Shown piece by piece: positions 425-28,545 of a stretch of DNA of 29,356 nucleotides; position 1 is the first letter of the stretch, and the number at the start of each line of letters is the position of its first letter. A program made the translations under genes and the position numbers. Below the pieces are notes generated by a model. The model made no database searches and was not told where the DNA came from. It was given only the letters and a program-made list of their open reading frames with translations. Source of the DNA: a virus (lineage: Duplodnaviria > Caudoviricetes); the IMG/VR virus record IMGVR_UViG_3300020042_006411, positions 1 to 29,356 of that record; one strand, 5' to 3'.

Positions 425-2107
425 ATGAACGACGAAGGCACGGAGCAAACAAAGAAGTGGCTTAGCTGTTATCAGCGGCTCAAAGATCAGCGCGTGTCGA
501 CTCAAGATCAAATCTGGCAGGACATCGCCAACTACGTAAGCCCGCGCAAGGCAGGCATTACAGAAAAGCGCTACATGCCAGACAGCAACAAAGAGGCGCA
601 AATCTACGACGCGACTGCCACTGACTCCGTGCAACGCGCCGTCTCTGCTTACACGTCGTGGACAACTCCGGCATCACAGCCATGGATTTCGCTGAAACCT
701 AATCTGAAGCTGAAAAATGACGACTCGGTGAAAGGCTGGTTGTCTGAGTGCTCGCAGATTCTCAATCAAGAGGTGAACAGTCGCAGTAACTTCCAACTCG
801 AGCGCCTTGAATCCGTGGCCGACCTTTGGAACTTTGGCACAACTGCCATTTTCTCCGAGATGGGCGAGGGCAATCGCCTGCGCTTTGAGAAAATCAAGAT
901 TGGCACCTACGTCTTTGAGCTTGATCCATTTGGCAAATGCTACCGATTCATCCGCGAGTTTGAACTAACAGCAGAACAGGCACGTCAGCAATTTGGCGAA
1001 GACAATCTTCCCAAGGTTATCAAAGACTGCTTTCAGGGCGATTACAGCAAAGGGAAGAGCTTCACATTTATTCACATCGTCGAGCCTCGCGAGCCTTCCA
1101 AAGTTGGCGCATACGGATACAACATTAAGACGCGCAAGAAGTATGTCTCGGCATACGTCGAGATGTCGTCAAAGAAGATGGTTCAAGAGGGCGGTTACGA
1201 CGGGTTTCCTTTTACCGTTGGCCGTTATTTGTCCTATGACGCAATGATCGGCTCTACTGGATGGGGCTACGGCCCAGGGTTTGCCATTTTGCCAGAAGCT
1301 CGGCAGCTTAATTTCATTCAGCAGATGATGGACGTGTTTGCCGAGAAGCAAGTCTTCCCGCCGATGCTTGTGCCTGACACTTTTGAAGGCAGTCTCAAAA
1401 CGGCAGCACGGGCGCTGAATTACTATCCTTCCGGCATGGGGCCTGAAAGCGTTTATCCTGTGCCTGTAACTGGCGAATGGAGCGTTGCTTTGGAGCGTGT
1501 GCGGATGCGTCAAGACATGATCAAGCGCCTCTGCTCGCTCGATATGTTCCAGATGTTTGCCAGCATTGATCGCGAGATGACTGCTTATGAGGTAGCGCAA
1601 CGTGCGGGTGAAAAGCTGGACACCGTGGGGCCGATTTACCATCGTGACGTTCGTGAGACTATTGAGCCGCATCTACGCCGTGCCTTCGAGCTTTGCGCTG
1701 AGAATGGCTTACTTCCACCACCGCCACAAGAAGCTTATGAACTTGTCGGCCGTGGCTTTGTGCAAGTGGCCGATCCAGAGATTGCGCTCACGTCACGTCT
1801 TGCGATGGCGATTGATAGCTGGAACGCACGCGGAGCCGATGAGGTCATGCAAACGGCCGCTTCGATTGCTGCCATTGATCCTACGGTCATGGACAATATC
1901 GACACGGCTTTTTACATCCGCGAGAAATCGAGGCTTGTCGGTGCTCCTGAAGGGCTGCTCCGCAAGCGTGAAGATGTCCAAGCGATCCAACAACAACGCG
2001 CACAGGCACAGCAAATGCAGCAAGCGGCCATGATGGCTAAGGATGTCGGCAGCGCTGTAAATAGTGCTGGCGGCATCGACAAAGTGAAGGAATTAGTCGG
2101 GGCGTAA
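425..2107 (+). CDS. Portal protein (head-to-tail connector, T7 gp8/BPP-1-like)
   Basis: 560 aa with connector-family motifs: IYDATA..V, TPASQPW, SNF..E...DL.NFGT, GWGYGPG...LPEARQLN, MTAYEVAQRAGEK...GP, and a Gln-rich C-terminus. Confidence 0.92.
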   Translation: MNDEGTEQTKKWLSCYQRLKDQRVSTQDQIWQDIANYVSPRKAGITEKRYMPDSNKEAQIYDATATDSVQRAVSAYTSWTTPASQPWISLKPNLKLKNDDSVKGWLSECSQILNQEVNSRSNFQLERLESVADLWNFGTTAIFSEMGEGNRLRFEKIKIGTYVFELDPFGKCYRFIREFELTAEQARQQFGEDNLPKVIKDCFQGDYSKGKSFTFIHIVEPREPSKVGAYGYNIKTRKKYVSAYVEMSSKKMVQEGGYDGFPFTVGRYLSYDAMIGSTGWGYGPGFAILPEARQLNFIQQMMDVFAEKQVFPPMLVPDTFEGSLKTAARALNYYPSGMGPESVYPVPVTGEWSVALERVRMRQDMIKRLCSLDMFQMFASIDREMTAYEVAQRAGEKLDTVGPIYHRDVRETIEPHLRRAFELCAENGLLPPPPQEAYELVGRGFVQVADPEIALTSRLAMAIDSWNARGADEVMQTAASIAAIDPTVMDNIDTAFYIREKSRLVGAPEGLLRKREDVQAIQQQRAQAQQMQQAAMMAKDVGSAVNSAGGIDKVKELVGA

Positions 2108-2116
2108 TCATCACAC

Positions 2117-2398
2117 ATGACACCATCATCACCTGAGTTACTAACGCCGCTGACGGCCGACGAAAAAAAGGACGTGCTAAAAGCCGCTCTCCGACTTTTC
2201 GACAAGCCGGATTTTCAGCTAGTCTTCCGCTCACTCAATGCGGACGTGGGCGGCATCCTAAATCCTGCCTTCGAGCAAGGCGGCGATGTAGTTAAAGCAG
2301 CATTCCGAGAAGGGCAGAAAGAGCCGCTTCGATGGCTATTCACGATGCACCTAAAGGGCATTCCAGAAACCGAAAAACCGCAAGAACAAGAAACATGA
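2117..2398 (+). CDS. Bbp19-like small head-associated protein
   Basis: 93 aa directly after the portal; AAFREGQKEPLRWL resembles the AFxEGxR motif of post-portal proteins in BPP-1-like phages. Confidence 0.7.
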   Translation: MTPSSPELLTPLTADEKKDVLKAALRLFDKPDFQLVFRSLNADVGGILNPAFEQGGDVVKAAFREGQKEPLRWLFTMHLKGIPETEKPQEQET

Positions 2399-2622
2399 CT
2401 GAAAAAAAACTCACATTTAAAGAATTTGCATTATCTAACCTGACGCTATCCGATCTTTCGAGGTCTGAGATTGTAGCGTTGTTAGAGGATAAACAAATGA
2501 CATCCGCCGTGTATGTCGCAGTTCAGTCTGAACTCATTAACAGGATTTCAGCGCCTAATCGTGCGAATTTTATGACAGGAGAATTGAACCCACTGCTACT
2601 AAAGGAAATTGACAGATTATGA
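2395..2622 (+). CDS. Hypothetical protein (75 aa)
   Basis: ATG at 2395; ATGA overlaps at both ends (2395-2398 and 2619-2622) indicate translational coupling. Confidence 0.65.
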   Translation: MTEKKLTFKEFALSNLTLSDLSRSEIVALLEDKQMTSAVYVAVQSELINRISAPNRANFMTGELNPLLLKEIDRL

Positions 2623-3011
2623 TCACGATCACACCAGACAATCAAATTGACCGCGACGGTGAAATCATCGGCAATATCATCGGCAATATCGCATGGATGA
2701 ACGCCAAGCCAGCGCCGCGCATTATTGGGCAAATTCGCCAAGTCGCAGGCATTGATGGTCTAACCTTTGAAGTCGCCGAAGCGCCAACTGTTAACGAATC
2801 CTTAACTGTTGAACCAATTTCCGCGCCGGAGGTTGTCGGTAATCCGTCGGCGTCGGAGCCTGCCGCTAGTTGTGATGATCTAGCGGCAGGCATTACTTTT
2901 GCCATTAGTTCTGACTGGGGCACGCTAGGCACGCCATACTTTGCGCGATGCTTCGTTAATCATTACGGCAACGACGCCTACTCGCAATTCTGCAAAGCTA
3001 ACGGCATCTAA
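2619..3011 (+). CDS. Hypothetical protein (130 aa) whose middle is encoded by palindromic/hairpin DNA
   Basis: Coupled to the upstream gene by ATGA; ends 9 nt before the scaffold gene. Confidence 0.65.
   Translation: MITITPDNQIDRDGEIIGNIIGNIAWMNAKPAPRIIGQIRQVAGIDGLTFEVAEAPTVNESLTVEPISAPEVVGNPSASEPAASCDDLAAGITFAISSDWGTLGTPYFARCFVNHYGNDAYSQFCKANGI
2858..2900 (+). other. Perfect 12-bp hairpin with loop TTGTGATGAT, followed by ATTACTTTT
   Basis: GCCTGCCGCTAG (2858-2869) and CTAGCGGCAGGC (2880-2891) are exact reverse complements. Confidence 0.75.
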
Positions 3012-3020
3012 TTTCTCCAT

Positions 3021-3878
3021 ATGGAAACCGAAACTACACCACCACCAGCGGACAACGCATTGCAAACGCAAGCAGCGACCACAACTGAAACGACAACGAC
3101 GCCAATTGAGGCAGCGCCATCTACGGCGACACGGCCTGATTACATCCCTGAAAAGTTTTGGGATGCGCAGAAGGGCGAGCCAAAAGTTGACCAACTTGGC
3201 GCTTCTTATCTTCAGCTTGAAAAGGCTTTCGGCGCTAAATCGCAGGCTCCAAAGAAACCTGGGGCCGACGCATCGCCAGAGGATCAGGCCAAGTATTATG
3301 CCGATCTTCGCAAGTTCACCGGAGCGCCAGAGAAGCCAGAAGATTACGGCATTAAGGCACCTGACAACCTTCCTGCAGGCGTTGAATGGAATGCTGAATT
3401 AGCCGGAAAAGCTGCGGGCATTGCTCACAAATACGGAGTGCCACCGGAAGCGCTGCATGAGTTAATTGCTCTCAATAATGAGAATATCAGCAGCATTGTG
3501 GCAAAGTCTGAAGATTTTGTAAAAATTTCACATAAAGATCATTTTGTTGATATTCTGACGAAAGAATGGGGAAACGACGCCGTGAGCAACTGGCAAGCAA
3601 TTGATCGAGGCGCATCGGCATCACGCGTGGACAAGACTGCTTTTGACCCTGATGCTGATGTAAGGATGGTTCAGCGAGAACTGGCAAAACTAGTGCTTCA
3701 ACGTGATCAAGATTTTCGCGACGACAAAGGGCTGATCAGCTCTGACTCTCAAGTTACTTATAAAGAGCAAGAGCAGCGGATTCTAAAGGGCGACGATTTT
3801 AACGGCAAAAACGGGCCGGAAGCTCAACAGGCAGCATTGGCAAAGCTAAAAGGATTGTTTGAGGCTTCTCAGCGCTAA
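3021..3878 (+). CDS. Capsid assembly scaffolding protein
   Basis: Low-complexity Thr/Pro/Ala N-terminus, RPDYIPEKFWD, SYLQLEKAFG, GAPEKPEDY, KEWG motifs; located between portal and capsid. Confidence 0.82.
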   Translation: METETTPPPADNALQTQAATTTETTTTPIEAAPSTATRPDYIPEKFWDAQKGEPKVDQLGASYLQLEKAFGAKSQAPKKPGADASPEDQAKYYADLRKFTGAPEKPEDYGIKAPDNLPAGVEWNAELAGKAAGIAHKYGVPPEALHELIALNNENISSIVAKSEDFVKISHKDHFVDILTKEWGNDAVSNWQAIDRGASASRVDKTAFDPDADVRMVQRELAKLVLQRDQDFRDDKGLISSDSQVTYKEQEQRILKGDDFNGKNGPEAQQAALAKLKGLFEASQR

Positions 3879-3880
3879 TT

Positions 3881-4516
3881 ATGCGAAACGTAAATTGTCC
3901 AAAAGCTAGGGTGTATATTCGCTGTGATGCCTTTGGCGGATCGGTGAATGAATATGAACCGGCATGGCTCGTATCTGTGCGGGCCATGCGTAATAGGCCA
4001 CTTTGCTTTCAAGTGTGGGTTGATAAATATGCGGCTTGTTACGACAAAGTTCCGCCGCATTGCGTGTTATGGTTTGAACCGGACGAAGACAACAAGCCTA
4101 ATTTGCCACTGCATAAAGTGCAAATGTGGGAATGCCTTTCCGGCTCCATTGAAGTCTGGCGCAAAGATCAACTGGCTGATGTTCCTGTGCTGATTAATTT
4201 AGGTAAAGGCTTCGCTCCAGCTAGAGGCCATTACTGGTTCACTATCGACTACCTCCCAGAAGGTCAATCGTCCGGGTTGTTTGACATCGGAGATGCCGAG
4301 CTACTCGAGGAGCACAAAGAAGCCAACGTGATCAAGTTGGAGAATGGGCAACTGGCCATTTACCCGAATAACCGCATTAAATGGCTTCCGGTTTCGCTGA
4401 CTGGAAAAGACGCTGCATCGGCGATTCCAGATTGGGACGCTGCCACCAACGCGCAATGGGATGAAAGCTGGATGGATTCCGACGAGATTTTAGGAGATGC
4501 AAAGTGGGCTTATTAA
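3881..4516 (+). CDS. Conserved phage protein of unknown function
   Basis: 211 aa with QMWEC, YWFTIDY and EEHK...KLENGQLAIYPNNRIKW; I recognise this pattern from uncharacterised proteins of aquatic phages. Confidence 0.75.
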   Translation: MRNVNCPKARVYIRCDAFGGSVNEYEPAWLVSVRAMRNRPLCFQVWVDKYAACYDKVPPHCVLWFEPDEDNKPNLPLHKVQMWECLSGSIEVWRKDQLADVPVLINLGKGFAPARGHYWFTIDYLPEGQSSGLFDIGDAELLEEHKEANVIKLENGQLAIYPNNRIKWLPVSLTGKDAASAIPDWDAATNAQWDESWMDSDEILGDAKWAY

Positions 4517-4533
4517 TTGGCGTCATTTTGCGC

Positions 4534-4563
4534 TTGCATCTTTTCTCAGATGTGAGAATCTAG
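4534..4563 (+). promoter_or_regulatory. Putative late promoter with palindromic operator (copy 2), upstream of the capsid gene
   Basis: TTGCAT (4534-4539), N16, GAATCT (4556-4561) preceded by TGn; TTCTCA-GATG-TGAGAA (4543-4558). Confidence 0.6.
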
Positions 4564-4570
4564 GTTAACA

Positions 4571-4637
4571 ACGGCCCCGCAAGGATAAGCTGTATGCCGG
4601 ACATAGGCCCGCAAACAGCGGAGAACCGAAGAACCGG
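4571..4637 (+). promoter_or_regulatory. Twin structured RNA hairpins in the major capsid leader
   Basis: ACGGC-C-CC-GCAA-GG-ATAA-GCTGT (4571-4593) and GG-C-CCGC-AAACA-GCGG-AGAA-CC (4606-4627), the second flanked by CCGG/CCGG; both share a C / ANAA internal loop. Confidence 0.55.
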
Positions 4638-4705
4638 GAAGACATGACACTTCCTCAGTCGCTCACAAGTGCGGCTCAACTTCACCTCTCTAATTCCCTG
4701 CCAAT

Positions 4706-5605
4706 ATGGCTACTATTGATACCTTCTACCCAACGATGTTCCAGACATCGTTCGACCAAGTTCTACAGCAGATGGATTCCCGTTTGCTTGGCTCCATTAC
4801 TCGCGCCGATTTCACTGGCAAGAAGAAATGGTTCAACCTCCTGAATGACAGCGAGGCACAAGACATTCTTACCCGCAAAGGCGACACTCCAGACGGCGAG
4901 TTTGACGGCTCCAAGTATTGGCTTACCCAGCGCCCAAAGGAAAAGGTTACGACCTTCGACGAATGGGACAAGCACTTCCTTGGCACCATTGTTCTGCCAA
5001 CTTCTGACGAAGTTCAAAGCCACGCGATGGCCTTCAACCGCGCCACCGATGACGTGATCATCAGCGCTTTTGATGCTACCCGCTACATTGGCGAAGACGG
5101 CACTACGACTGACAGCTTCCCAGCTGGTCAATCTATCGCTTCAGGCTATGTTGAAACTGGTTCTGATACTCCATCTGGTATGACGCTCGCAAAGTTGCGC
5201 CGCGCTAAGTATCTCATGGATCTTAGCGAAGTGCCTGATTCCGAGCGTTACATCGTTATCGGTGCAAAGCAGGAGCAAGACCTCCTTCGCGACACCAACC
5301 TGACAAGCGCTGACTTCAACACGGTCAAAGCTCTGGTTGATGGCAAGGTTGACACCTTCCTCGGATTCAAATTCCTGAAGTCTCAGCGTCTGCCAGTTGG
5401 CACCGTTTCCGGTGTTGCTGACATCCGCAGCTGCTTCGCCTTCCACAAGTCTGCAATCAAGTTCGCCATGAGCGACCGCCAGACCCGCATGGACATCCTG
5501 CCACAGCGTCGTCACGCCCTCCAGATCCGCTCGACCATGATGCTCGGTGCCGTCCGCACTGAGAATGAAAAGGTTGTTCGTATCTACAGCGACGAAACTC
5601 CATAA
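4706..5605 (+). CDS. Major capsid protein
   Basis: 299 aa; LQQMDSRL start, AMAFNRATDDVIISA, TSADFNTVKALVDGKVDTFLGFKF, GAVRTENEKVV end; follows the scaffold and precedes a terminator. Confidence 0.92.
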   Translation: MATIDTFYPTMFQTSFDQVLQQMDSRLLGSITRADFTGKKKWFNLLNDSEAQDILTRKGDTPDGEFDGSKYWLTQRPKEKVTTFDEWDKHFLGTIVLPTSDEVQSHAMAFNRATDDVIISAFDATRYIGEDGTTTDSFPAGQSIASGYVETGSDTPSGMTLAKLRRAKYLMDLSEVPDSERYIVIGAKQEQDLLRDTNLTSADFNTVKALVDGKVDTFLGFKFLKSQRLPVGTVSGVADIRSCFAFHKSAIKFAMSDRQTRMDILPQRRHALQIRSTMMLGAVRTENEKVVRIYSDETP

Positions 5606-5617
5606 CCTGAACTGATC

Positions 5618-5645
5618 GGGGCGGTGTAAAAACCGCCCCTTTTTT
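5618..5645 (+). terminator. Intrinsic terminator after the capsid gene
   Basis: GGGGCGGT-GTAAAA-ACCGCCCC followed by T6. Confidence 0.85.
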
Positions 5646-5672
5646 AAACCTTTACCCTCACAAAATACTCTT

Positions 5673-6149: not shown

Positions 6150-6169
6150 CCTTCCCGTTGGTTGACCTC

Positions 6170-6208
6170 GGGAGGCTCCTTGTGTATTAAGGGGCCTCCC
6201 TTTTTCTT
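6170..6208 (+). terminator. Intrinsic terminator
   Basis: GGGAGGCTCCTT-GTGTATT-AAGGGGCCTCCC followed by TTTTTCTT. Confidence 0.85.
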
Positions 6209-6222
6209 GAATCATTACCATT

Positions 6223-7098: not shown

Positions 7099-7102
7099 TC
7101 TC

Positions 7103-9823: not shown

Positions 9824-9864
9824 CTTTAATATCAAATCGTGATGAACTGATAGGAAATCATCAC

Positions 9865-10281
9865 ATGACCATTAGAGCTTATACTCCCGAAGATTTCCCG
9901 CTTATTGAGGCGTGGGCCAAAGCTCGCGACATGGTAATGATCCCGCAGCTTCTTAGCCCGAATGGCTTTATCGTCGAGGACGAAAGCGGGCCTTTTGCCG
10001 TGTGCTTTGTGTATCTGGCGTTTGGATGTCCGGTTGCCTCACTAGACAATCTTTTCACTAAACCGGGCACCTCGTTTGCTAAATGCCGCAAGGGTTGGCC
10101 GATACTTTGGCGAACAATTCTTTCCTTTCTCTCAAATTTGAGAACTTGCGATGACGTGCCTTTGAGTTATAAGATAGTCAGGATATACACCCGCACTCCG
10201 CTTGCTAGGTTTCTACGCAACTCTGAGGGTTGGAGCGTATCCGAACATACAAGCACACAGGCCATTTATGCGATACCGTGA
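9865..10281 (+). CDS. GNAT-fold-like protein at the T7 gp13 position
   Basis: ATG at 9865 in the frame of ORF 9820..10281; MTIRAYTPEDFPLIEAW start; lies between nozzle and ejection genes. Confidence 0.6.
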   Translation: MTIRAYTPEDFPLIEAWAKARDMVMIPQLLSPNGFIVEDESGPFAVCFVYLAFGCPVASLDNLFTKPGTSFAKCRKGWPILWRTILSFLSNLRTCDDVPLSYKIVRIYTRTPLARFLRNSEGWSVSEHTSTQAIYAIP

Positions 10282-18500: not shown

Positions 18501-20127
18501 GGATGCGAGTCGCAAGCAAATGGAGCGCGATGGCTGGGACGCTGACAGTTTCGCACAGCTTGAAAAGTTTCTTTCGCCAGAAGCTAAGGCGCTGGGACGG
18601 TGGATTTCTGGCAGCTATCAAGATGCGGCTGGCATGATTGATCCGATTTATCGTAGGCTGTTCAATGCACCACTTCCGCGCATTAAGAACTATTCACCGA
18701 TCTATAGGCGCAACATGAACGCGGGCGGAGAGGTGATGGACTTGGACAGTTCAGACATGAATAGCGGCCTAGCTGCTGGCTTTACAAAGTCCCGCGTGAA
18801 TACGACGGCTTCACTTGTGGAGAGTGACGCGCTTGCCGTGTTCTTGGCTCATTGGGAAAACGTCTCTCATTGGGTGGCGCACGCTGAAATGATGCGGGAT
18901 ATGAAGGCTATCTTGTTGGATAAAGATACTGCCGTGGCAATCCGTCAGAAAAAGAGTGAGGGTTATCTGCAACGGCTCAAACAAGACATCAGCACAATTG
19001 AAAAGAACGGCACGAACAATGCAAACGAGCTTGTGAATATGTCGCGTTTCTGGCGCTGGCTTATGCAGTATCGAGCTTATAAAGGCTTGGCGTTTCGTAT
19101 TTCTCCCATTATCAAACAAACTCCAGCGCTGCTAAATCCACTCTTGGCTGACGTGCCTGCTCACAATTACATGATGGGGCTTTCTCGCGCATTTATTGAG
19201 CCGCAGGCATTTGCTAGTGAAGTTTCCGCAATGTGGAAATCTGACATTATCCGCCGTCGTATTGAGTCGGGTTTCTCCGCTGAATCTCGCGTTGCGATGC
19301 AGGGTTCAAGCATGACCGGATCTCAAGCCATTCTTGCTATGCAAGCAGGCATGATGCCTATGGGCATGGTTGACGGTGGGTGGACTGCCCTGGGCGCTGC
19401 TATTTCCTTTGATTATTATCGGCGCGGATACATGCGTGAAAACCCGCAGATGACGCCAGAGATTGCAGATGCCAAGGCCATTGCACGTGTTGAAAAGATG
19501 ATTGCCACGTCGGCGCAACCTTCCGACGTTTATGCCCGCGCTCTTTACGAGCGTAATGGCAATGCGTTTATGCGTTCAATGTCAATGTTTGTATCTGACC
19601 AACGTAAGGCTCTTGCGATTGAGCTAATGGCAATTCGCAAGCTGGCAACGGGCAAGTCTAAAAACAAATCGCTGGACGTTCAGCGGGCGTTTGTGGCTCA
19701 TATCGTGCAAGCTGCTGTTTCGCAGGTAATGGCTGGTGTGATTGCTTCGCTATTAGGTGACGATGAAGATCGTGATCGCGAGTGGAGCACAGATCAGTGG
19801 ACGCTTGCGCTTACACTTGGCCCTGTAAATGGGCTATTTGTAGCTGGTCGATTGATCGACAAAGGCCTCCGTTCGATTCTTGGACTTCGCGTGTTTCCGA
19901 GTGATAACCTTGCCGATAAGGCATTTGTGGACATTTGGCGCGCTGGCAAAAATATAGATGATATTTTTAGTGATGATCCTGAAGATGTGATTAATGAAAT
20001 TGACAACTTATCTGCCGCCGCTGGCGCTGGCTTATCCGCTGCATTTGGCCCCGCCGCTGGCGCTGTCGATGTCGGCGCTAACGTGCTACGCGAAGCCCGC
20101 AAGATTCAAGATCGGCTAAGTGAGTAA
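12511..20127 (+). CDS. Giant internal virion / large polyvalent protein (gp16-like position)
   Basis: 2538-aa uninterrupted ORF; Gly/Ala hydrophobic segments with ATEVSEEFIQG, FSI(A/S)P linker repeats, DAEYLAAVES motif, helical C-terminal region. Confidence 0.85.
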   Translation: MPITRPSTQEDADNRLREAFIIQDFGALGGEVESYPLPDRNALLYSSATSAWAERILGAPANPYHPGWQGQKDGIVRSYFGEREAKDVSDEDLFGKIATDYRAQEKIANAARIAAARGESWLGKFREVETQEAGSIIPGRMTNYLGLARAAHDEMAAKVNPYRNTIKAVADMARNIDTSAEGMDWGAMASELVKIPKEDRPYVLEALSLQTPGESKAGDAERIKTAFVRGMERYLDTAVSSLETAGESTAGEFLRQSYGFDVEAQTPEQKAQRADFLDLRDDMRDIATGKLAPLKAVKIAGMNIAGAAEMLPMTLGSFVPYVGAAVTLGSFQRSTYNDIRRSNPEMSRDSANAIATVSAPFQAITEIASDRFLFGRLPNLKRAFTQPIFSATGALGMFATRAAIGTATEVSEEFIQGVTPLAIQDLSKALGQDLPGSDWNGFLGEFAQSLPELISTILPLAIVGAGTGQLSDFRAGRQLARSPDMLIAAQYSPESAAKISELANAGKWSEAEDAIRLDWAKINAKGADMAQVKATAEQRIQAAERIKSLQREQVSAEGLQTTSPDFTASVTRSPTGWQVTTGEGTIIPVDSAEAANQIYSKLRQVGSQQEADALVSVIDGYYEQGRQAETVFTGETVQASDVEAVGVVATRRDAGGAILSQRQLGPQALETVRAEAEVAGIKSGTQGIFAHINGSNEVFPMRVANGAKEIFRRMNLYKSQAEGQPQVITFLHENFESTWRLGMENGTFSDQETRTAMRALLPAFEGVTTLNAEEAQFIDNLRTLASGKGNETMLRETVSEMVIRDVLGRDRQGLATGMKPGSISRAIEASVMGANTQEEVSALKSILAAIKAFTAYLKGVFGTVDAITKARDEGKLGEEYDTFINKVLGIDEVKQMEGQAIDEAKAMLGVDEEAQAVIDAGNMAFSIAPLRAFTTKAEKEYAFGDGRYTHPVTLTNGTRLSGETFDYKWGSKIEIGKAGGIPTFFGYTKNGDEITIQARDVRPDMVASSRDNNRSANDLRDRLMMWHNKAKEQGFNFLDAGNMAFSISPVTPEQDAEYLAAVESAIETFSDLSPKQAENLRDLLEAEGWAIEYEGSNGALVYTSAEDLQERGIPRAVIYADFSSQADPQSLEDAIDYLIAGGFIDGDSRKVAESYWSKVVPVVPSKNAITGLDYIAESDKGPFPVQARDLASKYQLTPDQQRQLVEARSMVAFEVLKKDLIASADMVPIKRVGSMAELRALVEASYPSMPAEHVRAAVEKAWQRNQGDYSFLEGNDFNIANAVVRPYARHNFTNYDSIIRRAGGKSDAREATFDEVEGLLSEWHANPARFSISPIRNLNELSDQVERNFAENPAGALEVKSKVIRQFAKLADKWSNERWTPQGNKIRPISEKRTVKSLDKEQAMRQAQREVELVNEGMDKLTPNTIMAYSEGVGTLEDDPLVKKMLHDNGKLMSKATAERESRNIKDQYEDAGWIPPSWYSGGTTITTVIVTRADGSNESYDARKVPDEVKSEISNGAAKAVIKKHRTPATGGIMPDVMANNLGFDYASEMWAALESSIKSHRNAKADYAKAEAAVKAVEKAAFEQARQEAQAWRDETDAMQKEDWSPRESLVRDLITLEAIVAMFPQEIRGKIGGFVTLARKASEAARLKVLQRQLERGQELLEKHLKEQYGTAVDKLLERYQSKRDSSGRISGKILSTATEQVDYAAEFIDLDIVSQAKEQAALEKQVEESESAEEVQDALTKLGIARLFEVWDTKDSASRESAFLWLNETIEQGKQGKKLLDEERKAFLDDMRQSGQASILQGDELNAAVADNLTNLNKGVMRRALLGMRGVLSESLWTTLQRLELIFGEDSKILDYFSSKIINAANLSTDIKRMVEAQKKEALSIIFNSDSKFQHARGIAELQKLKDSGIMISKVTKKEIKLDIDTLTKLADGTMDAKTAGLEQAEVDAALEEFAANARKRTVTIEKVTSRAAPTSRTMSETQGIQWWLWSMQDASRKQMERDGWDADSFAQLEKFLSPEAKALGRWISGSYQDAAGMIDPIYRRLFNAPLPRIKNYSPIYRRNMNAGGEVMDLDSSDMNSGLAAGFTKSRVNTTASLVESDALAVFLAHWENVSHWVAHAEMMRDMKAILLDKDTAVAIRQKKSEGYLQRLKQDISTIEKNGTNNANELVNMSRFWRWLMQYRAYKGLAFRISPIIKQTPALLNPLLADVPAHNYMMGLSRAFIEPQAFASEVSAMWKSDIIRRRIESGFSAESRVAMQGSSMTGSQAILAMQAGMMPMGMVDGGWTALGAAISFDYYRRGYMRENPQMTPEIADAKAIARVEKMIATSAQPSDVYARALYERNGNAFMRSMSMFVSDQRKALAIELMAIRKLATGKSKNKSLDVQRAFVAHIVQAAVSQVMAGVIASLLGDDEDRDREWSTDQWTLALTLGPVNGLFVAGRLIDKGLRSILGLRVFPSDNLADKAFVDIWRAGKNIDDIFSDDPEDVINEIDNLSAAAGAGLSAAFGPAAGAVDVGANVLREARKIQDRLSE

Positions 20128-20432
20128 ATATCAGCAAGCACAGCCTTTAGCCTGTCGATCTTGACGGCCTGTTGTTGGATCGTCTGAACCTTTCTGGCTG
20201 TTGCTATTAGGTGAGACTCACGGGCTTCCTGTAGACGCTCTAGAAGCTCGGCGTTGGCTGCTAGTGCTGCGTTGAGTTCGCGCTCCAGTTGGCGTGCAAA
20301 GTCTGCTAAAACTATGTCTCCGTAAACTATCTTGGAGTCTCGCTTAACATAGATGTCAATGCAGCTATCATCGCAGTCGATTAATGTTAGCTCTGCCTCT
20401 GAATCGGTTTTAGGTGTTGGTGTATCGCTCAT
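20106..20432 (-). CDS. Island gene A (MSDTPTP... ADFARQLERE, coiled coil)
   Basis: 108 aa; ATGA-coupled to gene B; its 3' end overlaps the 3' end of the giant gene by 22 nt. Confidence 0.8.
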   Translation of the reverse strand: MSDTPTPKTDSEAELTLIDCDDSCIDIYVKRDSKIVYGDIVLADFARQLERELNAALAANAELLERLQEARESHLIATARKVQTIQQQAVKIDRLKAVLADIYSLSRS

Positions 20433-20755
20433 GGTTTGGTGAAGGGGTAAAGTCTGGCGAGGGCGTGATTCTGCCTATCATCAAGTAGCCAAGACGCATC
20501 ACTCGGAGGATCGTCAGCAAAGGAATGAAAAACCTCCCTGATAGCCTCGCGCATGGCGGTGTTATCAGCTAAAACCTTGTCTAGAGCTTCGTTGAGGGAC
20601 GATCTAGCTCTTTCACTACTTCTAAACAAAGAAAGCGCAGTATCTCGCTCGCGTTCTAGTTGTCGGGCAAAGTCTGCCGAAACAGGATCATTTGGGCAAG
20701 TTTTTGAGCGTTTGTGCCTTTTTCTCTCTGCGTCTGTTCTCGGTGTATCGTTCAT
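20429..20755 (-). CDS. Island gene B (MNDTPRTD... ADFARQLERE... NTAMREAIR... LARLYPFTKP)
   Basis: 108 aa; ATGA-coupled on both sides; shares modules with genes A, C and D. Confidence 0.8.
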   Translation of the reverse strand: MNDTPRTDAERKRHKRSKTCPNDPVSADFARQLERERDTALSLFRSSERARSSLNEALDKVLADNTAMREAIREVFHSFADDPPSDASWLLDDRQNHALARLYPFTKP

Positions 20756-21081
20756 GGTGTGATGAATGGTTGGAGTTTGGCGAGGGCTTGTTGGTCTGGA
20801 TACGGGGATGCCTTGATGGCATCATGCGCCTTTCTGATAGCCTCGCGCATGGCGGTGTTTTCATCCCTGACTTGGCGCAAGTGCTCAGCGTTGCAGCTTG
20901 CATCTAGCTCCATTTTAAGGTTGGCAATCTCCGCAGCCGGATCAGCCATGCCAGCGCAAGCGTTGACGCATTCTGCTATTCGGCGCTCATCTCCAGCGCT
21001 GCCGTTGCGGGTTAGCGCAAGATCGAAATCGTAGTTATAATTCCACGGCTCGCCGTAGTCGGGTGTTGGTGTAGTACTCAT
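20752..21081 (-). CDS. Island gene C (MSTTPTP... RRIAECVNACAG... NTAMREAIR... LAKLQPFITP)
   Basis: 109 aa; ATGA-coupled; RRIxxCVNACxG is a motif I recognise from small phage proteins. Confidence 0.8.
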   Translation of the reverse strand: MSTTPTPDYGEPWNYNYDFDLALTRNGSAGDERRIAECVNACAGMADPAAEIANLKMELDASCNAEHLRQVRDENTAMREAIRKAHDAIKASPYPDQQALAKLQPFITP

Positions 21082-21350
21082 GGTGTGGTGAAAGGTTGGA
21101 GTTTGGAAGCTGCTTTCATTCCGAGATTGCGTAACCTGTGACTATCATCTTGGTCATACTCCGGCATCGTGGCGATCTTAAACAAGTCGTCGTGGGCTGT
21201 TTTGATAGCCTCGCGCATCTCTTTAATCGTCGCCATGTCTTCCGCTCGAAGGTTGGCCAGTTTCAAAGCAAGCTCTGCAAGCTCGTCATACTCGCGTTGT
21301 TCGACGAGTTCGATGATGCCTTCCGGCGTGTGGTAAGGGTAGGTTTTCAT
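21078..21350 (-). CDS. Island gene D (MKTYPYHTP... EMREAIK... ASKLQPFTTP)
   Basis: Start placed at 21350 because of the ATGA overlap with gene E's stop (21347-21349); 90 aa. Confidence 0.78.
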   Translation of the reverse strand: MKTYPYHTPEGIIELVEQREYDELAELALKLANLRAEDMATIKEMREAIKTAHDDLFKIATMPEYDQDDSHRLRNLGMKAASKLQPFTTP

Positions 21351-21985: not shown

Positions 21986-21996
21986 GTGATGATTTT

Positions 21997-22032
21997 AAAA
22001 CAAAAAGGCCGACTCGGGCAAGGAGTCGGCCT
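21997..22032 (-). terminator. Intrinsic terminator in the leader of the reverse island (attenuator-like)
   Basis: Minus strand AGGCCGACTC-CTTGCCC-GAGTCGGCCT followed by TTTTGTTTT, ending 11 nt before the gene E ATG. Confidence 0.75.
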
Positions 22033-22129
22033 AATGCGGTTCATCGCAAGTTGGACGGTCACGCCTTGCCCGCGAGAACCATTTCCCTTTTATTGATCGG
22101 ATTCCTCATCGCGTCAAATTAAAATGAGT

Positions 22130-22159
22130 TTGCTTTTAATCGCATTTGTGAGAATCTGG
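22130..22159 (+). promoter_or_regulatory. Putative late promoter with operator (copy 3), upstream of the fibre/lysis module
   Basis: TTGCTTTTAATCGCATTTGTGAGAATCTGG aligns without gaps to TTGCATCTTTTCTCAGATGTGAGAATCTAG at 4534. Confidence 0.6.
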
Positions 22160-22163
22160 CGAT

Positions 22164-22430: not shown

Positions 22431-22432
22431 AT

Positions 22433-22935: not shown

Positions 22936-22941
22936 TAAAAT

Positions 22942-24645
22942 ATGCCTATCGGAACTATCACAAACGGCGAGTCGGGTTCATCCGTAAGGGCGAAACTCAA
23001 CAGCGTTATCTCTGCGACTAACTCGGCTCCTACGGATTACGCCACAGCCGCACAAGGTGCTACGGCTGACACGACGGCTAGTAGTCTTTCCTCGCACGTT
23101 GGAAACACAAGCAACCCGCACAGCGTCACCAAGTCGCAAGTCGGCCTCGCTAACGTAACAAATGACGCGCAGACTATTGCGTCAATCGTGCCGAATACCG
23201 CGCCAAGTGCAGGCCAGGTCTTAGTTGGCAACGCAGGCGGCACAGCTTACGCGCCGGTTTCCGCTTCGGGAGATGCTACGCTTGCGAGCACAGGCGCTTT
23301 AACATTGGCAACGGTTAACAGCAACGTCGGCAGTTTTGGCAGTGTCACGGCAGCGCCAGCGGTCACGGTAAACGCTAAAGGACTTGTTACGGCAGTTTCA
23401 ACGAATACGATCACGCCCGCAGTTGGTAGCATCACAGGACTAGGCACTGGTGTTGCTACGGCATTGGCTCAAAACGTCACTGGCAGCGGTAGCGTTGTTC
23501 TCGGGACATCTCCGACTCTTACGACTCCGGCGATTGGGACGCCATCAAGCGGCACACTGACAAGCTGCACCGGATTACCATTGAGCACTGGCGTCACTGG
23601 GACTCTGCCAATCGCTAACGGCGGCACAGGTCAAACGGCGCAGACAGCGGCATTTGACGCGCTTGCTCCGACCACGACCAAGGGCGATTTGATCGTGCAT
23701 AACGGCACCGATAACATCCGCGTGGCAGTTGGCGGCACTAATGGGCATGTGCTTACGGTGGATAGCGCAGAGGCCAGTGGCGTGAAATGGGCTGCTAGCG
23801 GCGGCGGTGGAAGCGGCCCTGACGTTCAGCTTTATACAGCCGATGCAACTTGGACGAATCCAAGCCCATCAACGGCCAAGCGCGTTTTTGTGCGTCTTGT
23901 TGGTGGCGGAGGCGGTGGTGGATCAGGGCGTAAAGGCGTGGCCGGAGTTAACAGATTCGGCGGTGGTGGAGCCGCCGCTGGCGCTGTCACTGAGTTTTGG
24001 ACTCTGACAACTGAGTTAGGATCTACAGCATCAGTCACAATTGGCGCTGGTGGCACAGGAGGAGCGGCGGTATCTACTGATACAACAAACGGCAACTCTG
24101 GAACGGCTGGCGGCAGCACTACGTTTGCAGGCATGACTGCTGTGGGCGGTGAGTTTGGGGTTGCTGGCGGTTCAAGCTCTGGAACAGCGGGCGCAGGTGT
24201 TGCCAACTCTTGTGTTTCCGGTGTTATTAGCACCATTAATGGCGCAGGCGGAGCTGGGGCTGCTGTTGCTGGCGCAGCAGGAACAACAATTAGTGGTGCC
24301 CTTCCAACTGGCGGCGGTGGCGGTGGTGGGCTTGATACCTCGAACACTAACCGTGCAGGCGGAGCAGGTGGAAGCATTGGAACTGCCGCAGGCATAACAG
24401 TCTTGGCAGGAGGAACGGCTGGAACTTCTGGTGGCGGCGCAGGCGGCAACGGCACTGCAGGTCGAGGATCAGGCACAGGTGGCGGAGGAGGTGGATCTAA
24501 CGGCGCTGGCGCTGGTGGCGCAGGCGGCAACGGCGGCGGCTTTGGCTCAGGGGGCGGCGGAGGAGCAGCTGGAACAAATAGCGTTGGCAATTCTGGCGCT
24601 GGCGGAAATGGTGCTCAGGGTTACGCGCTCATCATCACTTACTAA
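22942..24645 (+). CDS. Tail fibre protein with glycine-rich C-terminal domain
   Basis: [29 protein letters not shown] and [17 protein letters not shown] fibre modules; long Gly-rich domain starting [11 protein letters not shown] and ending GYALIITY. Confidence 0.85.
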
Positions 24646-24647
24646 TT

Positions 24648-25037
24648 ATGAAACGAATTGCTCACATCGACGGAACCACGATCATCAATGTTTCTTTGGC
24701 ACCTAATGACGCGCCATTGGCACCGAATACCATGCTTGAAAGCGATGCTATCGCGGCTGGCTATACTTACAAAAGCGCCAGTGATACGCTGCCAATCGTC
24801 GTTTCCATGCGGAGCTTTCGCGAAGCGTGCGGGCGTGACCTTACAATCAGGATCAACGCTTACGTTGCCAGCATTGAAGATCTCAATGAGCGGTTTAAAG
24901 CTCAGACTGATTTTGAGTTTGCCACTACGGTTTCACGCGCTCATTTTCGCGTTTCGCAGATTGCTTCAGCTTTAAGCAAGACTGAATCCGAGATCGACGA
25001 AGTGTTTGCACTAGCTCAACAATTAGACTTAAATTGA
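24648..25037 (+). CDS. Probable tail fibre assembly/accessory protein
   Basis: Directly after the fibre gene; VSMRSFREA...EFATTVSR...IASAL..TESEIDEVF pattern seen in post-fibre genes. Confidence 0.65.
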   Translation: MKRIAHIDGTTIINVSLAPNDAPLAPNTMLESDAIAAGYTYKSASDTLPIVVSMRSFREACGRDLTIRINAYVASIEDLNERFKAQTDFEFATTVSRAHFRVSQIASALSKTESEIDEVFALAQQLDLN

Positions 25038-25040
25038 CTT

Positions 25041-25208
25041 ATGCAAGACAATCACCTCACTCCTTTCATTGGATCGCTAATCGCCTTTGCAAGCACGGTG
25101 ACAAGTCTTGCAGAAATCGAAGTTTGGCTCAAGCTGAGTTCTTTAGCAGTCGGAACTTTAGCTGGAATTTTAGGCTGCATTTCAGCAATCAACAACCTCC
25201 GCAAATAA
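25041..25208 (+). CDS. Holin-like membrane peptide, 55 aa (not in ORF track)
   Basis: MQDNHLTPFIGSLIAFASTVTSLAEIEVWLKLSSLAVGTLAGILGCISAINNLRK: two hydrophobic stretches and a basic C-terminus. Confidence 0.65.
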   Translation: MQDNHLTPFIGSLIAFASTVTSLAEIEVWLKLSSLAVGTLAGILGCISAINNLRK

Positions 25209-25209
25209 T

Positions 25210-25383
25210 ATGAAAAACGTCTTCAAAAACTGGAAAACTACCCTCGCTGGCATCTTTGGTTTTGCATCCGTAGTGGTGCCCGTCGTGCTGCCACAATATG
25301 CGCCAATCGCTCACCAAGTGACGGCTCTTGCTGTTAGTCTTGGGCTGATTGTAGCCAAGGACGGCGACAAGACTGGCTTGTAA
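25210..25383 (+). CDS. Holin-like membrane peptide, 57 aa (not in ORF track)
   Basis: MKNVFKNWKTTLAGIFGFASVVVPVVLPQYAPIAHQVTALAVSLGLIVAKDGDKTGL; NWKTT...GLIxAKD pattern of small phage two-TM proteins. Confidence 0.7.
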   Translation: MKNVFKNWKTTLAGIFGFASVVVPVVLPQYAPIAHQVTALAVSLGLIVAKDGDKTGL

Positions 25384-25390
25384 TTTCACA

Positions 25391-25455
25391 CATTGGGAAT
25401 AAAGCGGCCTTCTAAACCGTAGCCTGCAGTCGGGTGCAAGTCCTGCCCTAATGCC
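25391..25455 (+). pseudogene. Degenerate tRNA-Arg(TCT)-like element lacking a D-arm
   Basis: Acceptor-like stem CATTGGG/CCTAATG, anticodon arm GCGGC-CTTCTAA-ACCGT, T-arm CGGG-TGCAAGT-CCTG; followed by T9. Confidence 0.5.
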
Positions 25456-25472
25456 TTTTTTTTTAAAGGATT

Positions 25473-25715
25473 ATGCCAAAACCGCCAAAAATAACAGAGC
25501 GCAAACTTGGCAAGCATCAAGCTATTGGCCTTTGCTGGAACGACGGCAGAATTGAAATTGATTCAAGGTTAACAGGCAAAAAGCGCCTTGAAATCGTTTG
25601 TCACGAAATCATCCATCACATCGCGCCCGATTGGGACGAGGCAAAAGTCTTGCATACAGGCCGAATCATAGGCAATGCGCTTTGGAAACAGGGTTACCGA
25701 AAAACTGACAGCTAA
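25473..25715 (+). CDS. Small HExxH (zincin-like) protein
   Basis: IGLC..DGRIEIDSRL...LEIVCHEIIHH..PDWDE. Confidence 0.72.
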   Translation: MPKPPKITERKLGKHQAIGLCWNDGRIEIDSRLTGKKRLEIVCHEIIHHIAPDWDEAKVLHTGRIIGNALWKQGYRKTDS

Positions 25716-25723
25716 CAAATATT

Positions 25724-26707
25724 ATGACTAAAGCCGCAATTGTTAGATCGTATCTTGAGCGCTTTCCAGAAACGGAAAATCGGACATTGGCTAAACTCTT
25801 GCATAAGGAATTGCCCACGGTTTTTATGTCGCCCGAATCAGCTCGCGACATTATAAGAAGACTTCGGGGGGCCAAAGGAAAACGTCATATCAAATACGCT
25901 ATAGACAAATCGGCATTTAAGCCGCTTGGCTGGCAGAAGGATGTGATACCTAAAACGCTTGCAAGAACTCGGGAGCCAATCGTTTTAAGCGGGGCCTTGA
26001 AGGTGCTGATTTTGTCAGACATCCACATCCCGTATCACGACGAGGTGGCTGTAGCTGCCGCTATCGCGCACGGCAAAAAGAAAAAGCCGGACGTAATTAT
26101 CCTCAACGGTGACATCGGTGATTTTTATGGCGTGTCACGTCACGACAAAGATCCGCGCCGCTCGCTTGCTGATGAGTTGGACGCCATTCGCCAGTTTCTT
26201 TTCCACCTTCGCAAGCAGTTCCCGAACGCACGCATTTTTTACAAAATTGGAAATCATGAGGCACGCATGGAGATGTTTTTGGTCAAGAATGCGCCCGTGC
26301 TTCTCGGCGTTTCAGATTTTGAGCTTCCCGTGTTGCTGAAATTTGATGAGTCGAGGATCGAGCTTGTCCCATCGCTGACGCTCATTCGACTCGGCAGTTT
26401 GCCGATTTATCACGGGCACGAATTGCCGCAGGGTATGTCATCGCCAGTCAATCCTGCGCGAGGCATTTGGATGCGCGTGCAGGAGTCGCTTATCTGTGGC
26501 CATTGGCATCGCACAAGCGAGCACACTGAGAGCACGGGACTAAACAAAAAGCTGTCTTCGTGCTGGTCAACGGGATGCCTTTGCGACCTGACGCCGGATT
26601 ACGCTATCGTGAACCGCTGGAATCACGGCTTTGCATGGGTAGAAACGCAATCCGATGGCAACTATGAAGTGACGAATCACAAGATCATTAATGGGAGGGT
26701 TTATTAA
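25724..26707 (+). CDS. Calcineurin-like metallophosphoesterase with N-terminal helical domain
   Basis: Full motif set: SDIH, NGDIGD, GNHE, HGH, GHWH. Confidence 0.9.
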   Translation: MTKAAIVRSYLERFPETENRTLAKLLHKELPTVFMSPESARDIIRRLRGAKGKRHIKYAIDKSAFKPLGWQKDVIPKTLARTREPIVLSGALKVLILSDIHIPYHDEVAVAAAIAHGKKKKPDVIILNGDIGDFYGVSRHDKDPRRSLADELDAIRQFLFHLRKQFPNARIFYKIGNHEARMEMFLVKNAPVLLGVSDFELPVLLKFDESRIELVPSLTLIRLGSLPIYHGHELPQGMSSPVNPARGIWMRVQESLICGHWHRTSEHTESTGLNKKLSSCWSTGCLCDLTPDYAIVNRWNHGFAWVETQSDGNYEVTNHKIINGRVY

Positions 26708-27250
26708 ATGAAAACTGTATGCCTAGATCCTGGCCATGGAATGAGCAATCGCCGCGCGGGCGCTTATGATCCTGGGGCGTGTGCTTTTGGTAAAAAGGAA
26801 GCCGAGATAGCAATGGACTGGGTTAACGAGCTGCGCGTCATCTTGCAAGCTCGCGGCCATAAGGTTGTCAGAACTCGAATCAACGGCAGCGATCCCGCGC
26901 CAGTTGGCGAGCGTGCTGGCATCGCGGAAGAATACGGCTGCGACATCATGCTATCTATCCACTGCAATGCTGCAAATGGGGCAGCAAATGGCACAGAGAC
27001 GTTTTACCGTGGCGAGTTTAACAAAGGCCTTGCTGCAAAAATCAACGCGGCTTTATGCGCTGTTCTTGGCACCAAGTCGAGGGGCGTTAAAACTGAAAGC
27101 GCAAGCCAGCATTCACGGCTTGCCGTCATGGCTTTCCAGCCGTGTTTCCTGATCGAGCTTGGATTCATCGACAACGCAGGCGATCTTGAAAAGATGATTG
27201 ATCCCGTGCGGAGGCTGGCAGCTTGCGAGGCCATCGCTGAATTGCTATGA
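26708..27250 (+). CDS. N-acetylmuramoyl-L-alanine amidase (Amidase_3-type endolysin)
   Basis: LDPGHG, E (KEAE), SIHCNA, GTETFY and LIELGFIDN motifs. Confidence 0.92.
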   Translation: MKTVCLDPGHGMSNRRAGAYDPGACAFGKKEAEIAMDWVNELRVILQARGHKVVRTRINGSDPAPVGERAGIAEEYGCDIMLSIHCNAANGAANGTETFYRGEFNKGLAAKINAALCAVLGTKSRGVKTESASQHSRLAVMAFQPCFLIELGFIDNAGDLEKMIDPVRRLAACEAIAELL

Positions 27251-27372
27251 GGCGTGCAATTTGGCCATACAGTTTCTATTTCTTGGCCGTCTATTGTTTT
27301 GGCTTCATGTATGGCACGGCCTTGTTCATTATTGTGTGGTTTATCCAGCTTGTTATCGAATGCGCCGATTAA
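27247..27372 (+). CDS. 41-aa hydrophobic membrane peptide (not in ORF track)
   Basis: MRRAIWPYSFYFLAVYCFGFMYGTALFIIVWFIQLVIECAD; ATGA overlap with the amidase stop and TAATG overlap with the next gene. Confidence 0.6.
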   Translation: MRRAIWPYSFYFLAVYCFGFMYGTALFIIVWFIQLVIECAD

Positions 27373-27527
27373 TGGAAGTTCCTCTTGGCTGGAAGCTCTA
27401 TGACGGGCCGAAAGATTGGCGCTTAATCAAAGGTGCGAAGTTTTGGGACGCTGCTCAATTGCGTTGGCGCAAGATAAACGGCGGCGCGTTTGCAACTGGC
27501 GACGGGCCAATTATTGTGAAGTCATGA
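27372..27527 (+). CDS. Hypothetical protein (51 aa, Trp-rich)
   Basis: ATG at 27372 in the frame of ORF 27198..27527; coupled at both ends. Confidence 0.55.
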   Translation: MEVPLGWKLYDGPKDWRLIKGAKFWDAAQLRWRKINGGAFATGDGPIIVKS

Positions 27528-27727
27528 CTGACTGGCAACGCATCGCAGACCACTTCAATGCAACGGCAAAATGCCGACGGCTCAAAACGGCACAGCCTAA
27601 AGTAAGCCATGAGCCGGGATGCACGTTTGTTGAATGCCAACATTATAAATGCGTTTGCCGCATGAATGACCACGGTGACGATCCGCTTAGTGCATTCCTT
27701 GCTAAGTGGCAAAATAGGCACGGGTGA
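27524..27727 (+). CDS. Cys/His-rich hypothetical protein (67 aa)
   Basis: ATG at 27524 via ATGA overlap; five Cys, including CTFVECQHYKCVC. Confidence 0.55.
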   Translation: MTDWQRIADHFNATAKCRRLKTAQPKVSHEPGCTFVECQHYKCVCRMNDHGDDPLSAFLAKWQNRHG

Positions 27728-27800
27728 AAAGATTTCTACTTTTACACTTGCGCGAGTTTGGCGCGTGTGATTAGATGCGTTGTCATCACGACATCATCAC

Positions 27801-27983
27801 ATGAAAACCTTAAAAATTAGCGAGACATTGCACTCGCAACTACGCATCAACGCAGCCAATCAAGGCTGTAGTCTTCAGTCCCTCGCTGAGGGATTTATCA
27901 CCAATGGCATTGCAGATTTGTTTAAACGCAAGCAGGCCAAGACTGGCAATCCTCTACGCCTTCGGAAAGGATCAGCAATATGA
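27801..27983 (+). CDS. Ribbon-helix-helix-type DNA-binding protein
   Basis: MKTLKISETLHSQLRINAANQGCSLQSLAEGFI fits the Arc/CopG beta-alpha-alpha pattern; first gene after an intergenic gap. Confidence 0.72.
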   Translation: MKTLKISETLHSQLRINAANQGCSLQSLAEGFITNGIADLFKRKQAKTGNPLRLRKGSAI

Positions 27984-28306
27984 ACGACTTAACTCCATGG
28001 CTTGACTCCATCAACGAAGGTCCGCGCAAGCGTGCATTTTTTGCAGCCGTTTTCAGTAAGTTGGAAGAGCTTGGCTTCATTCTTAATAACCCTGACGCCA
28101 TCGACGGCGGTTATCGCTTGGAGTTTTTCAATGAAGGCAATCTCACTTGGGTTGTTGCTGACCGTTACACATCTTTCCCTGTAGCTGGCGAAGATCCCGG
28201 CATTCAGCTTTATTCTGAAAATGAAGCGTGGGAAGCATCATTCCGCGCTCGCACTCCAGTTCAACTTGCACTTGATGCACTCGAATACCTTACCGCTAAT
28301 GAATAA
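27980..28306 (+). CDS. Hypothetical protein (108 aa)
   Basis: ATGA-coupled to the RHH gene. Confidence 0.7.
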   Translation: MNDLTPWLDSINEGPRKRAFFAAVFSKLEELGFILNNPDAIDGGYRLEFFNEGNLTWVVADRYTSFPVAGEDPGIQLYSENEAWEASFRARTPVQLALDALEYLTANE

Positions 28307-28532
28307 TCTATCCTCATTTCATTTCCGTTCCGGCATGGGCGACCGTGTAACCGACAACCGCGCAGAGTGGTTGATTAAGCTAGACGATCACATCCGCGCC
28401 AATTCACCACGGCAGCGCAGGCTGGAAGCGGAGCGCCGCTTTCTTCTTGCTCGCTACCACGAAACATTTTCAGCCATTGCAGGCGGCATCCTGCTGGTTG
28501 TTATTATCCTCTGCCTTGCATTCATCGCCTAA
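28299..28532 (+). CDS. Hypothetical protein with C-terminal transmembrane segment (77 aa)
   Basis: ATG at 28299 overlaps the upstream end; AIAGGILLVVIILCLAFIA C-terminus. Confidence 0.62.
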   Translation: MNNLSSFHFRSGMGDRVTDNRAEWLIKLDDHIRANSPRQRRLEAERRFLLARYHETFSAIAGGILLVVIILCLAFIA

Positions 28533-28545
28533 CATCATCACTACT

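Follow-up and report, generated by a model that had tools for sequence, protein, structure and literature searches.

The virus contig IMGVR_UViG_3300020042_006411 (Duplodnaviria; Caudoviricetes), analysed here over its full length of 29,356 bases and referred to as the window, encodes a portal-type connector (425-2107), a major head protein (4706-5605), tail proteins, an internal virion protein, an amidase and a RecT-like protein; relatives with direct terminal repeats measure 38-41 kb. Where no family scored above the cut-off, gene names such as scaffold, GNAT-like or RHH-like are tentative and were taken from position or weak matches. Inside its head operon the window carries a double hairpin, one loop of which displays the complement of TCATCAC, a sequence that recurs directly before several start codons and that we call the start tag. 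The named relatives of the window's amidase are found in Prosthecobacter, Luteolibacter and Chthoniobacterales (64-67% identity), and from this one gene we conclude that the host of the phage is probably a verrucomicrobium. The gene leaders in the window are poor in G (13.75%), and a Shine-Dalgarno (SD)-like word is present in 5 of 36; genomes in which SD sequences are scarce include some Verrucomicrobia, according to the available text of PMC10783764.

The two-hairpin element, a candidate small RNA of 72 nt on the plus strand (2820-2891), lies inside a 130-codon open reading frame (ORF; 2619-3011, plus strand) between the post-portal gene and the scaffold-position gene; this ORF has no family match, and its homologues occur both with and without the element. 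Hairpin 1 (2820-2857, plus strand) is placed directly 5' of hairpin 2 (2858-2891, plus strand), a perfect 12-bp stem closed by a 10-nt loop in which GTGATGA (2872-2878), the seed complementary to the start tag, is exposed. This loop and stem had been recognised in a preliminary description of the sequence and were verified; what had been overlooked was the intragenic position of the element, the adjoining hairpin 1 and three further copies of the tag (2125-2132, 27783-27789 and 28549-28555). Among the perfect close inverted repeats listed for the window, hairpin 2 is the longest, and the segment 2800-2920 folds with a z-score of -4.09. The T-run said to follow it turned out to be four T after a 5-nt gap that are not kept in relatives: the 3' tail of the element is variable, several copies have no T-run, the loop measures 8-10 nt, and no intrinsic terminator was called at this position. 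As an intrinsic terminator hairpin 2 was rejected, since it does not combine a GC-rich stem, a loop of 3-8 nt and an immediate conserved U-tract; a promoter at a fixed distance 5' of the element was likewise discarded, as the lengths of the flanks differ among lineages. Rfam gave no match at gathering score in the window and, with E relaxed to 5, none over the element, the only returns being weak and unrelated. No description of this element was found in literature listings and abstract openings, subscription journals and supplements lying outside that scope. Just 5' of the element the same ORF contains an imperfect palindrome of 27 bases (2785-2811), which also occurs in the element-less genomes G004 and G014, has no match in G003 and G011, and is possibly a protein-binding site.

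Copies of the element in relatives were collected by three pattern scans in which the loop was left free, and 23 of 26, 28 of 42 and 14 of 21 matches proved to be true copies, while the remainder (3/26, 14/42 and 7/21) were chance pattern matches that we dropped after folding and translation. All true copies lie within homologues of the 130-codon ORF, and the 22 distinct ones align without gaps. In this alignment 99.5% of the 374 cells of the named structure are paired, and changes on both sides are seen in 10 of the 17 pairs (8 of 12 in hairpin 2), counts that are biased upward, given that the copies are related and were found by their stem pattern. As controls for covariation, none of 500 shuffles reached the observed value and slid versions of the structure paired in 28-46% of cases; an unconstrained consensus fold with RNAalifold returned the same 17 pairs. 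For hairpin 1, both-side changes are found in 2 of the 5 scored basal pairs, and individual copies fold with a shifting register. Its base is conserved and its loop variable across copies, on which ground a second seed in hairpin 1 was rejected; the role of this hairpin is probably structural.

With respect to polarity, the 10 distinct stems contain 12 G-U pairs and no A-C pair, and the plus strand folds more stably in all 22 copies, so that the plus strand appears to be the functional one; what the loop displays would therefore be complementary to the tag rather than identical with it. The loop core GTGATG is unchanged in 22 of 22 copies, with A as the seventh base in 19 and T in 3, and it stays the same while the codons that run through the loop vary between C, S and R and between D and V. 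Among eight close relatives, variable third codon positions number 0 of 24 within the element as against 24/67 and 24/39 outside it, and variable columns 0 of 34 in hairpin 2 as against 34/201 and 41/117 in the flanking ORF. Judged from these comparisons, constraint acts on the RNA over the protein. A search of 80 sources with model R1 returned just 7 copies, all known (78-105 bits), with everything else at 26 bits or below; it found no copy in the hairpin-less relatives, and in 151 genomes belonging to the same class as an Opitutae genome it gave 2 weak matches, both without the loop.

In the window the motif ATCATCAC occurs 11 times where 0.92 copies are expected, a count that was reached in 0 of 100 shuffles. 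Of 36 gene starts picked by hand, 7 have TCATCAC itself within positions -20 to -1; 20,000 shuffles of each leader gave a mean of 0.09 and not one reached 7, nor did any other 7-mer of whatever kind get to 7 of 36 leaders. A one-base error in the RecT start used for this count leaves it unchanged. The coordinates at which the preliminary description had placed the motif before start codons all check, and the enrichment it had proposed at starts is thus borne out. The best-conserved site, often tandem in relatives, is that of the first gene after the portal (2117-2398), a weakly Bbp19-like gene (Pfam PF25181, E 0.0014, under the cut-off): in the window the tag is found at 2107-2114 (plus strand, 2 nt from the ATG) with a second copy at 2125-2132 in codons 3-6, and a tag 3' of the portal stop or in the first codons of the next gene is present in 19 of the 19 element-lineage records displayed versus 0 of 6 others. 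Two further sites are on the plus strand, namely tandem tags at 27783-27789 and 27793-27800 (0-nt gap) before a small RHH-like gene that opens the early block (27801-27983; its Pfam RHH-type matches are under the cut-off), and a tag at 28534-28541 (4-nt gap) before the RecT-like gene, whose ATG is at 28546 and whose first codons hold another copy at 28549-28555 (span 28534-28555). Behind tail tube B, a tag at 9857-9864 (plus strand, 0-nt gap) precedes a 138-codon gene (9865-10281) and is kept in G001, G002, G003, G005, G006, G007 and G036.

On the minus strand, the first gene of an accessory operon has a tag at 21986-21993 (0-nt gap), which lies on another transcript than the hairpin element and corresponds to ACATCAC at the matching gene of G019; since a tagged site is thereby carried by a separate transcript, action in trans is implied. 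A tag reading TTCATCAC at 20759-20765 (minus strand, 3-nt gap) belongs to the accessory gene 20755-20429 and is also found in G001 and G005. As an observation on the same strand, 20106-21350 contains four tandem short accessory genes that are alike at both ends (a TP-rich N-terminus and an 'LARL/KL.PF' C-terminus) and differ in copy number among relatives.

Three other sites of the preliminary description fared less well. The tag-like sequence at 24631-24638 (plus strand, 9-nt gap) forms part of the closing codons of the tail-fibre gene; 1 of the 4 genomes that have the downstream gene carries it, and it is probably incidental. The variant ATCATTAC at 6211-6218 (plus strand, 4-nt gap), before tail tube A, is shared by 4 of 24 records, every one nearly identical to the window, and is a weak candidate for a target site. 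The pairing in cis suggested between GTGATGA at 9839-9845 (plus strand), 5' of the 9857 tag, and the copy at 9858-9864 did not hold up either, with GTGGGAT at this position in G002, G003 and G007 and an imperfect partner in G019. The sequence at 9839-9845 may instead be part of a promoter, because of the GTGGGAT in those three genomes and because the TTGAC that stands 12-13 nt before it is common to the hairpin-less G004.

To follow the tags through relatives, we called tagged starts with an automatic rule (CATCAC at most 12 bases from the first ATG of an ORF of at least 40 codons), which was run on 36 of 37 records; G033, which ends before the element, was omitted, and five records were covered to base 20,000 only. 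The 16 genomes with a GTGATGA loop contained 73 tagged starts, in 69 of which CATCAC is preceded by T, and in the 3 genomes with a GTGATGT loop 7 of 7 tagged starts read ACATCAC. By the same rule 1 of 1203 candidate starts was tagged in the seven close hairpin-less relatives and 2 of 1258 in ten distant phages. Three deep lineages of the portal tree have the element and two lack it, and the loss of the hairpin was accompanied by loss of the tags in two lineages (the major-capsid tree is a quick version). Genomes with GTGATGT group in a single supported clade, and its sister G036 retains GTGATGA; in the post-portal slot, with two copies each, G036 and L056 have TCATCAC and G019, G037 and G020 have ACATCAC. 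The opposite-strand operon, RecT of G020 and first-codon copies within ORFs show the same base switch, and relic TCATTAC sites remain in G019 and G020. A covariation of loop and leader motif in related phages, as raised in the preliminary description, is thus observed. In terms of calculated duplex energies, a genome's own loop was best at 8 of 8 targets in the window, 6 of 7 in G019/G020 and 2 of 3 in G036, frequently with little to spare.

These data bear on two explanations in which the hairpin and the tags are not partners. In the first, which the preliminary description had offered as an alternative, the host uses the tag as a general SD-independent initiation element, and its match to the loop arose by chance. 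The A/C/T-rich leaders would fit, as would the ability of C/A-rich words to enhance translation described in the available text of PMC3879156. The close hairpin-less relatives, however, are also practically devoid of the tag, one Opitutae genome contains 37 pattern matches in 3.2 Mb compared to 5 in the 29 kb of the window, and the tag tracks the change of the loop, so that we regard this explanation as largely refuted and hardly credible any more. The second would make the tag a binding site for a protein, either a DNA operator or a translational repressor site, with the hairpin as an extra site or decoy. The spacing of tandem copies, 8-14 nt, would suit a dimeric protein, family scans indicate that the phages encode small RHH- and HTH-like proteins, and a change in specificity could shift all sites jointly. 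But a decoy would need the minus strand, while G-U pairs and folding energies favour the plus strand; a DNA operator needs neither a compensated RNA stem nor a single orientation at every start; and hairpin and tags were lost together twice. We therefore consider a protein site highly unlikely.

Given the compensated structure, the plus-strand polarity, the clade-wide co-occurrence of hairpin and tags and the matched base change, all of which come from sequence comparison, an RNA that pairs in trans seems to be the best reading, and we hold pairing of some kind to be very probable. The idea of a loop-displayed antisense acting on several gene units, with which the preliminary description had started, gains support from the enrichment and the covariation. 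Several points weigh against it. The joint change of loop and tag is a single evolutionary event that concerns one base in one subclade. The pooled Fisher P of 3e-9 is overstated, as the genomes are related, with values of 0.008, 0.012 and 0.33 for individual genome pairs. The key sister G036 has 2-3 tagged starts only, and G039 has none by the strict rule. The energetic advantage of the own loop is often below 1 kcal/mol at G019/G020 targets and is lost at 1 of 3 G036 targets, and in G038, which has a GTGATGA loop, the start-proximal copy in one early leader is ACATCAC. A seed of 7-9 nt in a loop of 8-10 nt allows just a short duplex. Promoter and terminator predictions gave none at the ends of the element, which stands in frame and is translated through, leaving the route of RNA release unexplained; and the late timing discussed below is deduced from gene position alone.

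The geometry of the tags hints at what pairing would do. Filtering out internal methionines reduced the 91 tagged starts listed for 16 records to 79 (two of these are duplicates from overlapping pieces). The gap between tag and start codon is 0-3 nt in 69 of the 79, tandem tags are present in 29, and 14 have an extra copy among the first 30 bases of the coding sequence. With a length of 7-9 nt, the tag contains no G and no SD core and adjoins the ATG, and one seed matches 3-11 starts, on both strands and genome-wide. Tagged genes include the terminase small subunit, RecT/Bet-like proteins, helicases, methyltransferases, small RHH-/HTH-like proteins, the post-portal gene and many unnamed accessory genes; the portal, scaffold-position and major capsid genes of the window are without tag. 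As a general rule, pairing across the initiation region blocks binding of the 30S subunit. Because the duplex would cover the start region (gaps of 0-3 nt, first-codon copies), the effect of pairing is likely to be repression of translation. The opposite sign, with the RNA as a phage-made adaptor or unfolding aid that activates translation in a host making little use of SD pairing, would agree with the SD-poor leaders, with tagged starts that are mostly without translational coupling and with tags accompanying newly inserted genes. It would be at odds with the masking of the start by such close tags and first-codon copies, with the untagged major capsid, scaffold and portal genes, and with the hairpin-less relatives, which express the same genes without the element; activation is in our estimate quite improbable.

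The tag also stays in place while the gene behind it is swapped among relatives, as in the post-portal slot of G000, G008, G038, G019, G020 and L056. The RecT-like gene of the window (28546-29355) is unlike the version in G001/G005 past its first few codons (no tblastn match) and has kept its tagged start, which suggests that it was swapped just behind its tag. Different accessory genes behind a common tag, together with an encoded RecT, are what one would expect if the tags were short homologies used by the phage recombinase for swaps of accessory genes, the loop match being secondary. This would leave the compensated hairpin, its polarity and the matched loop change unaccounted for, and hairpin-less relatives hold inserted genes in the same region without tags; we give this explanation very little probability. 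Observed apart from this, the interval from the portal to the scaffold position (2395-2622, and the same slots in G001, G004, G008, G019 and G020) contains small inserted genes that vary between relatives, with ATGA-type overlaps at the joins.

In the mechanism that we favour, and consider probable with less confidence than pairing as such, the double hairpin in a late-operon gene would give rise to a small RNA that represses translation of tagged starts late in infection. The RNA would probably be cut from the message of the head operon, and the loop of hairpin 2 would then pair in trans with the tags and stop ribosome loading. Made together with the head genes, it would act in the late phase and turn down early, regulatory and accessory genes as well as those for low-dose morphogenesis (the RHH-like, RecT, helicase-methylase, post-portal and terminase small subunit genes), and would leave portal, scaffold and major capsid unaffected; the nearest upstream tag, in the element's own operon, would provide negative feedback. 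The same pairing might alternatively serve as an immunity or carrier-state repressor, by which a latent infection silences the first lytic-operon genes of resident and incoming phage and a change of the loop founds a new immunity group, as in c4 of P1/P7. For this speaks that the first gene behind a putative promoter is often tagged, as with the terminase small subunit, the early block and the minus-strand operon, that no CI-type repressor family was matched in the ORFs scanned, and that c4 sets a precedent for heteroimmunity (available text of PMC12197685). Against it, no integrase or partition family was matched among 107 ORFs chosen from G003, G005 and G019 (part of the ORFs of each genome) or among the scanned ORFs of G001; a comparison of the major capsid with 185,579 GTDB genomes gave 53 loci with a best match of 42%, and no close capsid relative or prophage; and the RNA has its place within the head operon, where no separate promoter for it was found. 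We prefer a role in lytic timing over immunity because of the missing integrase/CI-type match in the scanned ORFs and the missing close capsid relative in GTDB, and regard immunity as unlikely.

Three further RNA-like or promoter-like features were observed in the window. On the minus strand (22006-22090) a hairpin precedes a terminator-like stem, the loop of which can pair about 40 bases upstream; the pairing segments differ by lineage yet remain complementary (G019 L139, G036 L294, G037 L296, G015 L133, G017 L137), which suggests a pseudoknot or attenuator. It has no Rfam match and is also found in phages without the double hairpin, and at another genome position. The leader of the major capsid gene (4545-4705) contains a promoter-like stretch led by TTGC with a palindrome in the spacer, and about 130 bases of it are conserved and apparently structured in the 13 of 13 genomes displayed, with or without the double hairpin, again with no Rfam match. 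A second such promoter-like arrangement (TTGC, then GTGAGAATCT) is located at 22140-22156, 5' of the tail-fibre/lysis block and back to back with the minus-strand leader.

Compared with known systems, the element would work like c4 and P4 CI but stands outside these families: it has no Rfam match, is intragenic and has dispersed targets with no SD core. In c4 of P1/P7, short complementary sequences, thought to be placed in loops, pair near the ribosome-binding site and block translation, the target being given as the antirepressor message in the available text of PMC12197685. Measured against that text, the window element shares the short loop-displayed antisense and a sequence difference that sets specificity between related phages, and differs in being intragenic, in matching dispersed starts on both strands and in lacking an Rfam match. 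P4 CI RNA is processed from a longer untranslated transcript and acts on the flanking seqA and seqC, leading to termination in the lysogen (available text of PMC4825925); both have short complementary sites, including one located upstream within the RNA's own transcript, whereas the targets here are start codons across the genome and no lysogeny genes were found in the scanned ORFs. With both RNAs the element thus has in common a conserved, loop-displayed antisense that changes with its target, and its targets extend beyond an immunity operon of its own.

The Cluster K mycobacteriophage SAS is likewise an asymmetric, one-orientation, phage-group-specific repeat shortly 5' of the ATG in a subset of genes. 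As described in the available text of PMC3203893, it comprises 13 bp with an SD core, stands 3-7 bp before the start of non-structural genes only and is of unknown function. The tag differs from it in length (7-9 nt), in having no SD core, in adjoining the ATG and in its covarying loop partner, a complementary RNA not being named for SAS in that text; tags of this type also precede terminase small subunit and post-portal genes. GcvB of enteric bacteria, a chromosomal small RNA that represses many messages via a C/A-rich sequence near the start (available text of PMC3879156), resembles the element in directing a G/U-rich seed at C/A-rich sites of many starts. GcvB acts upstream of the SD sequence on metabolic genes of the host, in contrast to the window element, which is phage-internal, loop-displayed, located in an ORF and faced with SD-poor leaders; unlike a GcvB-type gene, it has no promoter or terminator call of its own and its tail is not conserved.

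If the favoured mechanism is true, these phages, probably of Verrucomicrobia, would possess a seed-based, genome-wide regulon under an RNA hidden in coding sequence, whereas the phage antisense RNAs in the cited papers, as far as their available texts go, have as targets one phage message or operon, or host genes. A bolder version would turn an RNA from the middle of a coding sequence into a genome-wide master switch of translation with tagged starts as plug-in slots for acquired genes and, in its boldest form, would let it license translation in place of SD pairing in an SD-scarce host; we consider this decidedly unlikely. Translation control without Shine-Dalgarno pairing is poorly understood in Verrucomicrobia, and the natural variants GTGATGA/TCATCAC and GTGATGT/ACATCAC represent a ready compensatory pair. 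The finding suggests that RNA partners may lie hidden behind other puzzling repeats at gene starts, among them the Cluster K SAS.

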